A DNA stretch of 64,000 bases from a virus: IMG/VR virus record IMGVR_UViG_3300045988_128600; one strand, written 5' to 3'. The position numbers and the translations under genes were made by a program. Positions 50,981 to 51,052 of this stretch are shown here, piece by piece. Below the pieces are notes generated by a model. It made no database searches and had not been told where the DNA came from. It saw only the letters and a program-made list of their open reading frames with translations. Numbering within the stretch: the stretch's first letter is position 1; each line of letters starts with the position of its first letter.

Positions 50981-51052
50981 CGGAGGGGGTGGGTGTCGAT
51001 CCCACTTATCTGGTTTTAGAGACCAGCGCATTTGCCGCTATGCTACCCCTCA
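50981..51052 (-). tRNA. candidate amber-decoding tRNA, anticodon CUA (probable tRNA-Gln(CUA))
   Basis: Sense sequence TGAGGGG TA GCAT AGCGGCAA ATGC G CTGGT CTCTAAA ACCAG ATAA GTGGG ATCGACA CCCAC CCCCTCC G. The anticodon loop CUCUAAA has U33 and A37. It carries a weak 1:72 pair and G73, which are tRNA-Gln-like features. The D-loop AGCGGCAA resembles E. coli tRNA-Gln. Confidence 0.65.

Follow-up and report, generated by a model that had tools for sequence, protein, structure and literature searches.

The recoding of stop codons in phages was reportedly described by Ivanova et al. in 2014. The closest described counterpart of the locus analysed here is the theta ribozyme, a hepatitis delta virus (HDV)-like ribozyme of minimal form whose cut site lies within 5 nt of the 3′ end of a phage tRNA (PMC10879173). 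In the same survey, 20% of theta ribozymes adjoin a suppressor tRNA (tRNA-Sup), 99.7% of these having a CUA anticodon; 85% of the tRNA-Sup genes in theta-carrying phages have a theta ribozyme, 96.4% of such phages use genetic code 15, and CCA is encoded in only 4.5% of theta-associated tRNAs (PMC10879173). Mutation of the catalytic C to U abolished Mg2+-dependent self-scission in four theta members, and genes for RNA ligases and CCA-adding enzymes are enriched in theta-carrying phages, the DRB0094 ligase family 140-fold (PMC10879173). A second point of comparison is phage phAss-1, for which its authors reported recoding of TAG to Gln, a Gln isotype assigned by tRNAscan-SE and a probable Clostridia host (PMC10607447). 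Here we describe a minus-strand locus in a 64,000-nt stretch, hereafter the window, of the IMG/VR virus record IMGVR_UViG_3300045988_128600, where a tRNA with anticodon CUA, tRNA(CUA), is followed directly by a predicted theta ribozyme. We propose that the two form a two-part unit in a gut phage of ~190 kb that uses UAG as a Gln codon, a reading to which we assign a probability of roughly 0.8.

The putative suppressor tRNA and the predicted ribozyme behind it

The minus-strand cloverleaf with anticodon CUA that a preliminary description of this DNA had recognised is recovered by ARAGORN (anticodon cta, 50980-51052, 73 nt), by Rfam model RF00005 (50981-51052, 52.3 bits versus a gathering score of 29) and as the minimum-free-energy fold of the 72-nt sequence, and no differing anticodon was assigned. 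Read 5′ to 3′, the tRNA is UGAGGGG-UA-GCAU-AGCGGCAA-AUGC-G-CUGGU-CUCUAAA-ACCAG-AUAA-GUGGG-AUCGACA-CCCAC-CCCCUCC-G, its D-loop AGCGGCAA, anticodon loop CUCUAAA, T-loop AUCGACA and G73 being all as first described. It has the 7/4/5/5 cloverleaf, U8, G18 and G19, U33 and 7-nt anticodon loop that mark members of RF00005, together with A37, G2:C71, A3:U70 and G10, and deviates from a canonical elongator in its U1.C72 mismatch and in A54 replacing T54. Position 1:72 had been taken for a weak pair closing a 7-bp acceptor stem; it is in fact a full mismatch, and the stem consists of six pairs. The T-loop, with A54 and A60, is indeed unusual, A54 being confined to tRNA(CUA) among the 28 parsed tRNAs of the window, but it is not unique, as A54 also occurs in 22 of the 419 tRNAs of the fetched loci, a set partly selected via this same T-arm. 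The 17-nt T-arm GTGGGATCGACACCCAC that holds A54 and A60 is found unchanged in tRNA-Ser(GCU) and Tyr(GUA)-type tRNAs of unrelated phage contigs (loci L017, L020, L023 and L025-L030), a distribution that suggests its recurrence or exchange among phage tRNAs.

In the window ARAGORN counts 29 tRNA genes, which all lie on the minus strand (35.3-60.6 kb), and tRNA(CUA) is the sole one with a CUA anticodon. CCA is encoded in 25 of the 28 parsed tRNAs, and tRNA(CUA) is the only well-scoring one that lacks it: as had been stated, the CCA end is not encoded, though a single C (C74, 50980) follows G73 before C75 and A76 are missing. The label 'Pyl' that ARAGORN attaches to the gene was rejected, as it is given only for the cta anticodon. 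In tRNA-Pyl the anticodon stem has 6 bp, the variable loop 3 nt and the small D-loop no G18G19; in tRNA(CUA) these elements measure 5 bp, 4 nt and 8 nt, the D-loop containing GG, and no match to Pyl enzymes was found among the ~30 window proteins scanned.

As we read the sequence, tRNA(CUA) lacks CCA because a theta ribozyme directly adjoins it, an element that had escaped the preliminary description and that explains the absent 3′ end. On the minus strand, positions 50927-50979 parse as GGTGCT-AA-AAACAAA-ACC-T-CC-TCGC-GGT-AGCACT-GG-GTAATG-CTAA-TTTGTTT, an exact fit to the published theta layout in which every pair of P1, P2, P3 and P1.1 forms and the catalytic C is present. That layout asks for a P1 of 6-7 bp with G at its start, a short J1/2, a P2 of 7 bp, ACC/GGU as P3, an L3 of U-CC-NCGY, P1.1 between GG and CC, a short L4 and a J4/2 of CUAA that opens with the catalytic C. 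G1 (50979) and G73 (50981) are separated by one nucleotide, C74, which places the predicted cut within the ±5 nt that define theta ribozymes. A theta descriptor rebuilt from the published sequences, split by structural element, finds a single locus in the window against 0.003 expected from 300 second-order Markov resamples, and no locus once A or T stands in for the catalytic C. Likewise, a covariance model of 12 published theta ribozymes, none of them from the window, aligned with N padding to keep P1 in register and with only P1 and P3 entered as pairs, matches 50926-50979 on the minus strand at 36.7 bits (E 1.2e-7); this is its sole significant match, the next reaching 14.6 bits. On 12 published sequences the full pseudoknotted theta fold is 97% paired and shows strong covariation, and the predicted fold of the 126-nt precursor holds the cloverleaf and P1/P3 side by side. 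According to these models the element is of the HDV type and lies outside Rfam family RF02682, and, by analogy, its fold and cut site follow from an experimentally characterised family. A 7-bp P1 opening at C50980, with cleavage right after G73, was considered and judged less likely, as HDV-type ribozymes and the published theta sequences compared start at G1, in the latter usually with a G.U wobble.

Two further ribozyme-like elements came to light. One relative carries a second, different theta ribozyme directly behind tRNA-Trp(CCA) (locus L033, 4844-4898), for which neither the descriptor nor the covariance model finds a counterpart in the window. In the window itself, the tRNA array contains a match to the type-P1 twister ribozyme (56747-56797, minus strand) that stays below threshold (41.2 versus 67.2 bits; E 5e-6 for 27 kb searched). 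It is situated just upstream of an open reading frame (ORF) of 78 codons and may represent a second self-cleaving ribozyme.

Glutamine at UAG codons and the proposed charging of the tRNA

To follow the use of UAG, ORFs were delimited by TAA and TGA only and in-frame TAGs were counted per gene. In-frame TAGs occur repeatedly in an endolysin gene and in several other genes, including tail-fibre-like ones (Table 1), while none is found in the replication and RNA-repair genes of the window and most early genes are likewise free of them. TGA and TAA still terminate genes: the ORFs of at least 90 codons end with TAA in 37 cases, TGA in 10 and TAG in 8, and seven of these eight TAG-ended frames are fragments of recoded genes. 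The remaining one (50383-50745, minus strand) plausibly ends at a genuine TAG, the suppression of which would add 61 codons and reach into a tRNA-Tyr gene; the sequence past this TAG evolves like non-coding DNA in the relatives, and the ORF is absent from the relative L131, which is part of a metagenome-assembled genome (MAG). The summed ORF length per window rises from 0.94 to 1.13 with TAG readthrough and to 1.21 with TGA readthrough and is thus not decisive, so that recoding became evident gene by gene and not from whole-window ORF statistics.

The identity of the inserted residue was addressed through homologues and through codon exchanges. A database search brings up 4871 relatives of the lysin at E < 1e-10, and the lysin's TAG sites were compared with 113 homologues of less than 60% identity by pairwise BLASTP alignment, chosen because the domain order differs among lysins and a global MAFFT alignment misplaced the lysozyme domain. 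At site 146, within the motif P-x-D-*-S, 111 of the 113 homologues have Gln, and at site 53 there are 53 with Gln and 38 with Glu; when the eight sites are added up, BLOSUM62 favours Gln (11.2) over Lys (10.3) and Glu (10.0). Independently of homologue annotation, we aligned 28 related loci to the window and recorded, in ORFs of at least 160 aa, the codons at which TAG in one sequence faces a sense codon in another. Of 36 distinct exchanges, 22 involve Gln codons (CAA 16, CAG 6), followed by GAA and AAA with three each, TAT with two and single cases of others, one of them Trp; CAA lies two substitutions from TAG, so its dominance is as synonymous exchange predicts. Judged from these comparisons, UAG is recoded to Gln in the lysis and structural, that is late, genes of a phage whose host presumably uses the standard code. 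The need for a UAG decoder is thereby shown, and the in-frame TAGs, the Gln residues of the homologues and the codon exchanges all support the initial proposal that tRNA(CUA) would be this decoder.

The tRNA itself speaks less uniformly, being compatible with Gln in much of its identity-bearing structure. The bacterial Gln identity set comprises G73, U1-A72, G2-C71, G3-C70, G10, U34/U35/G36, A37 and U38 (PMC9976931), of which tRNA(CUA) has G73, U1 with an unpaired 1:72, G2:C71, G10:C25, U35 and A37, and its D-loop agrees with the one in E. coli tRNA-Gln(CUG) at seven of eight positions. Position 36, where the set asks for G, is A, as is obligatory for an amber suppressor. None of the phage's sense tRNAs is closely related to tRNA(CUA), and its sequence is not demonstrably derived from tRNA-Gln. 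It would rather represent a lineage-specific suppressor, its acceptor end and anticodon tuned to glutaminyl-tRNA synthetase (GlnRS), than a recent tRNA-Gln derivative.

Exchanged tRNA bodies and competing explanations

GenBank phage records contain no near relative of the phage; among cultured phages its proteins come closest to those of Enterococcus Herelleviridae, to which an AAA ATPase is 43% identical, and by sequence the host is probably a member of the Bacillota. In IMG/VR, on the other hand, there are at least 13 contigs of 159-197 kb, mostly from one sample, with proteins 91-99% identical to those of the window, and all of these carry the ribozyme at the same position, one L3 base being the only difference. 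The slot immediately before this ribozyme is occupied by one of three unrelated CUA tRNA bodies (loci L031-L040 and L131): allele A, a 72-nt body, in the window and two contigs; allele B, of 90 nt with a 21-nt variable region, in seven contigs and one MAG; and allele C, a different 72-nt body, in one contig. The flanks are ~95-99% identical and keep this match to the very edges of the swapped bodies, their first and last tRNA nucleotides; contigs with allele A and those with allele B are mutually exclusive, and the sequence of allele A is identical in independent contigs. Common to the three bodies are a mismatched 1:72 (U.C, U.U and C.U), G2:C71, G73 and C74. The relative L131 (CAMELE010000001.1, 163,874 bp, 96-97% identical) forms the first contig in a MAG that bears the label 'uncultured Mollicutes bacterium'; probably a phage genome has been placed in one bin with that of a bacterium, or else the label gives a weak hint at the host.

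Allele A further belongs to a lineage of short suppressors, its closest annotated relative being the tRNA-Sup-CTA of phage phAss-1 (76% identity). In an alignment of eight distinct members, where the T-stem is invariant by ascertainment as it forms part of the search pattern, 20 of 20 stem pairs are kept in all sequences, nine of them with compensatory changes, and 3:70 varies between C:G, G:C and A:U. By contrast, 1:72 is unpaired in eight of eight, including members that encode CCA. Together with G73, such a conserved pyrimidine-pyrimidine mismatch suggests a deliberate targeting of GlnRS.

From these observations we derive the following route. The unit would be transcribed from the minus strand, probably in one transcript with the upstream 39-codon gene, and RNase P would generate the 5′ end of the tRNA. 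The ribozyme is predicted to fold into P1, P2, P3 and P1.1 and to cut 5′ of G1. HDV-type cleavage leaves a 2′,3′-cyclic phosphate, and by analogy the released tRNA would end in G73-C74 with this group, which would have to be removed before C75 and A76 could be added. Healing to a 3′-OH and completion of the CCA end could be performed by host enzymes or by phage genes, the phage candidates for healing being a phosphoesterase, a kinase and a nucleotidyltransferase; the end-healing and sealing genes between 19535 and 28541 (Table 1) may act on the 3′ end of the suppressor, and no canonical CCA-adding enzyme was seen among the window genes. Charging with Gln would most likely fall to the host GlnRS, because the unpaired 1:72, G2:C71, G73, G10, U35 and A37 make up most of its identity set. 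The charged tRNA would then compete with release factor 1 (RF1) at UAG and allow the TAG-containing late genes, the lysin among them, to be translated in full.

Tentatively, the body swapping could be carried one step further, into a model that we consider unlikely as a whole. The ribozyme and the G73-C74 junction would serve as a 'maturation socket' into which recombination inserts unrelated CUA bodies that have converged on an unpaired 1:72, G2:C71 and G73 and thereby capture the host GlnRS, while the cyclic phosphate would block CCA addition until the phage end-healing enzymes, encoded 23-31 kb away, are made. If this were true, repair of the 3′ end would set the time at which the standard code gives way to code 15, and hence the time of lysis.

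Several points weigh against the proposed suppressor-ribozyme unit. The D-loop had been called tRNA-Gln-like, a likeness that extends to most identity positions of the acceptor end and anticodon but not to A3:U70 and A38, which depart from the E. coli GlnRS identity set, nor to the sequence overall, which shares only 58% identity with E. coli tRNA-Gln(CUG). A position-specific isotype classifier with 68% leave-one-out accuracy, trained on 173 phage tRNAs excluding loci L017-L030, which had been fetched via the T-arm of tRNA(CUA) itself, places Ser (5.2) and Gly (3.2) on top for tRNA(CUA) and not Gln, a weak call of little information; the same classifier returns Gln or Trp for allele B (8.5 versus 8.0) and Gln for allele C (4.8). 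With loci L017-L030 included it had called tRNA(CUA) 'Ser' at 12.7 bits, which we discarded as an ascertainment artefact, since these loci contribute Ser and Tyr tRNAs whose T-arm is identical. Should the host lack GlnRS, charging through GluRS and GatCAB appears doubtful because C34 and the missing U1-A72 pair depart from the usage of these enzymes (PMC9976931). The A54/A60 T-loop is off consensus, and folding or EF-Tu binding could suffer from it. The Rfam match of the ribozyme to RF02682 (50925-50979, minus strand) stays below threshold at 26.1 bits versus a gathering score of 44; E is 0.0038 when 231 nt are searched, and with 27 kb the match is not significant (E 0.45). Finally, the window covers 64 kb of a genome of ~190 kb, elsewhere in which another suppressor tRNA may lie.

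Part of this evidence would fit a working amber suppressor that inserts a different amino acid, such as Trp, Lys or Glu, leaving UAG ambiguous or otherwise assigned. G73 with a weak 1:72 is also a bacterial Trp feature, present in all five fetched tRNA-Trp as well as in tRNA-Gln of the fetched phage set; the Lys and Glu sums over the lysin sites come near that of Gln, the classifier withholds a Gln call for allele A, and the tRNA-Sup isotypes called by Kienbeck et al. include Trp at 19%, Ile at 10% and Tyr at 1% (PMC10879173). We nonetheless regard such an assignment as quite improbable. The near-invariant Gln at lysin site 146 and the prevalence of Gln codons among the exchanges, against three for Lys, three for Glu, two for Tyr and one for Trp, speak for Gln; TrpRS needs C35 (PMC9976931), and an amber tRNA-Trp is charged in E. 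coli by GlnRS and not by TrpRS (PMC2965240). LysRS, which is drawn by A73 plus U35 (PMC9976931, PMC2965240), and TyrRS both depend on A73 and are excluded by G73, while the long variable arm that SerRS requires, and that also marks the bacterial tRNA-Tyr class, is absent from tRNA(CUA).

It is also unlikely, if somewhat less so, that the tRNA decodes UAG while the HDV-like element beside it is inactive or irrelevant, its 3′ end being matured by host RNases and CCA-adding enzyme and the element defining or protecting the 5′ end of a conserved downstream RNA and gene. Such a division of labour would agree with the closest, phAss-1-like relatives of the tRNA, which encode CCA and have no ribozyme, so that this tRNA type needs none; with the 177 nt behind the ribozyme, which are highly conserved and may be structured; and with the many theta ribozymes that do not stand beside tRNAs (PMC10879173), self-cleavage in the window being a prediction by analogy. 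Yet the cut site falls at most 1 nt from the tRNA end and at precisely the one well-scoring tRNA without CCA, neither the ribozyme nor its catalytic C changes among the three different tRNA bodies that precede it, and four of four published tRNA-theta pairs tested were cleaved in vitro (PMC10879173); moreover, the two roles of the ribozyme are not mutually exclusive. Least credible of all is that the locus holds a decaying or non-decoding tRNA-like sequence, such as a pseudogene, decoy or processing signal, with UAG being read in some other way. The mismatched 1:72, the missing CCA, the A54/A60 T-loop and several degenerate tRNA-like remnants just upstream (51300-51770) would all be expected of such a relic, but the Rfam score is far over threshold, all stems persist across the lineage, in part through compensatory changes, as does the 1:72 mismatch, the sequence is identical in independent contigs, each related genome has exactly one alternative CUA tRNA in the slot, and TAG-rich essential genes need a decoder.

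Setting of the locus and comparison with described systems

The features of the locus and of the wider window, with gene identities assigned by Pfam, NCBIfam and PHROG matches, are collected in Table 1. The small ORF that had been noted upstream of the tRNA is a real gene: its start is GTG in the window and ATG in 18 relatives, seven of nine internal substitutions among the relatives are synonymous third-position changes, and it is kept in all three allele backgrounds. It has no Pfam or PHROG match, no terminator-like site separates it from tRNA(CUA), and the two are probably co-transcribed; promoter-like sites around the locus (13 versus 8.7 ± 3.3 expected) are not above background. On the other side of the ribozyme, the 177-nt non-coding stretch is more conserved than neighbouring coding sequence. 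Within it, a hairpin at ~50808-50837 bears six substitutions in two relatives, all of which preserve pairing; RNAalifold counts one compensatory pair and four one-sided pair-preserving changes, which is weak evidence.

Table 1. Positions of the features in the window
Feature	Position	Strand	Remarks
Amber suppressor tRNA, positions 1-73	50981..51052	-	72 nt owing to a 4-nt variable loop; ARAGORN, Rfam, minimum-free-energy fold
Anticodon CUA, positions 34-36	51017..51019	-	reads UAG; ARAGORN and direct sequence reading
C74	50980..50980	-	last tRNA nucleotide before the predicted ribozyme cut (50980/50979); sequence
Minimal HDV-like theta ribozyme (predicted)	50927..50979	-	53 nt; exact parse, descriptor scan, covariance model, conservation
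Ribozyme P1	50974-50979 with 50946-50951	-	opens with G1.U
Ribozyme J1/2	50972-50973	-	
Ribozyme P2	50965-50971 with 50927-50933	-	
Ribozyme P3	50962-50964 with 50952-50954	-	L3 = U-CC-UCGC
Ribozyme P1.1	50959-50960 with 50944-50945	-	
Ribozyme L4	50938-50943	-	
Ribozyme J4/2, CUAA	catalytic C at 50937	-	
Small conserved gene	51062..51181	-	39 codons; C-terminus basic, VICRTKEHYENRIAKLYSHGEVMNQRLINKMKRKLRKLN; 9 nt lie between its end and the tRNA
Highly conserved non-coding stretch	50750..50926	-	177 nt; would stay attached 3′ of the ribozyme after cleavage
Endolysin (phage tail lysozyme PF18013 and amidase_2 PF01510)	11754-13055	-	8 in-frame TAG
Repeat-rich surface or structural protein, 676 aa	47767-49797	-	6 in-frame TAG
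Uncharacterised gene	2538-3551	-	4 in-frame TAG
Cys-rich protein	16837-17556	-	3 in-frame TAG
NAGPA/SPOR protein	52952-53809	-	2 in-frame TAG
Uncharacterised gene	1598-2260	-	2 in-frame TAG
Several tail-fibre-like genes		-	1 in-frame TAG each
Polynucleotide-kinase-like protein	20080-20604	-	
Calcineurin-type phosphoesterases (three)	19535-20095, 21359-22078, 26759-27541	-	
RNA ligase	24668-26044	-	weak match to DRB0094 family
RlaP-like nucleotidyltransferase	27735-28541	-	
Major-vault-protein homologue	30743-33241	-	
DUF2828/DUF7788 protein	33721-35247	-	
Band-7/flotillin protein	17848-19233	-	

The end-healing genes lie in a neighbourhood reminiscent of RNA repair that spans 17848-35247 on the minus strand and also includes a NADAR protein. 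Elsewhere, a radical-SAM/SPASM enzyme adjoins the very Cys-rich 239-aa protein with three in-frame TAGs (15213-17556, minus strand) and a YcaO-domain protein adjoins a weak peptidase-U32-like protein (60712-63155, minus strand), so the phage may encode peptide-modification systems. Among the structured RNAs, the degenerate tRNA-like sequences at 51300-51770 (minus strand) follow tRNA-Val and consist of single T-arms and D-arms in fragments; at 51357-51441 a tRNA-like fold has an anticodon loop of 8 nt, and an Rfam-positive tRNA (46.2 bits) at 60563-60633 (minus strand) has a 6-nt anticodon loop. Downstream of tRNA-Leu(UAA), at a distance of 14 nt, there is a RAGATH-33 RNA (36964-37092, minus strand, 122.7 bits versus a gathering threshold of 120.4) whose first hairpin has gained 16 nt by insertion. 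Rfam also gives weak matches of Y-RNA-like type (YrlA), at 52770-52880 and at 54913-55024, which overlap tRNAs.

The combination of a suppressor tRNA with a theta ribozyme in a code-15 gut phage is a system already described by Kienbeck et al. (2024, Nat Commun 15:1559), and the present locus shares its essentials: a CCA-less tRNA(CUA) with a 53-nt minimal HDV-like ribozyme within 1 nt, the invariant core ACC-U-CC-NCGY-GGU ... GG ... CUAA, and a phage that uses code 15, has TAGs in its lysis and structural genes, encodes an RNA ligase, comes from the gut and is of a Bacillota-like type. It differs from the tRNAs of that survey in its A54/A60 T-loop, its U1.C72 mismatch and the encoding of one C of the CCA. 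Neither the exact tRNA and ribozyme nor alleles B and C occur in the part of the Kienbeck supplementary tables that was compared, an absence that proves nothing. The ribozyme also resembles the F. prausnitzii HDV-like ribozyme (RF02682) and the minimal drz-Mtgn ribozymes of metagenomes in its nested double-pseudoknot core, G1.U, L3 UCCUCGC and the catalytic C of J4/2, and it differs in having no P4 helix, with a 6-nt L4 instead, in its sub-threshold Rfam score and in following a tRNA 3′ end.

The phage further conforms to known code-15 phages in reading TAG as Gln mainly in late genes and in carrying its suppressor inside a large tRNA array (Borges et al., 10.1101/2021.08.26.457843; Peters et al. 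2022, PMC9523058), although its lineage is unrepresented in GenBank phage records. The short suppressor of phAss-1 (OQ749652; Babkin et al. 2023, PMC10607447) has the same U1.C72, G2:C71, G73 and anticodon loop, and phAss-1 also has a long-variable-arm CUA tRNA that resembles allele B. The phAss-1 suppressors, however, encode CCA, have canonical UUCGAUU T-loops and stand in tandem with no ribozyme behind them. The phAss-1-like loci L056, L061, L069, L074, L076, L077 and L079 likewise carry a short and a long CUA suppressor in tandem, both with CCA, whereas the window phage and its relatives have one of the two kinds per genome and a ribozyme behind it.

With respect to charging, tRNA(CUA) recalls the E. 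coli amber suppressors supE (glnV) and those mischarged with Gln, which combine CUA, U35 and G73 with a weak or broken 1:72 that GlnRS accepts (PMC9976931, PMC2965240). The mischarged class comprises the su+7 tRNA-Trp and acceptor-stem mutants of supF and supD, and supE arose from a genuine tRNA-Gln by point mutation, whereas tRNA(CUA) shows no tRNA-Gln descent and has a full 1:72 mismatch and A3:U70.

Taken together, the locus offers a concrete mechanism for the reading of UAG as Gln and supports the published proposal that suppressor tRNAs of phage code switching are matured by theta ribozymes. In practical terms, such contigs need to be translated with code 15, also where, as for the relative inside a 'Mollicutes' MAG, they are filed under a bacterial name. 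The survey of Kienbeck et al. does not discuss acceptor-end identity features, the cyclic-phosphate end or an allelic replacement of tRNA bodies. Relative to that description, the conserved 1:72 mismatch with G73 in a phage amber suppressor lineage and the base-precise swap of three tRNA bodies between a small gene and a fixed ribozyme are modest new observations.

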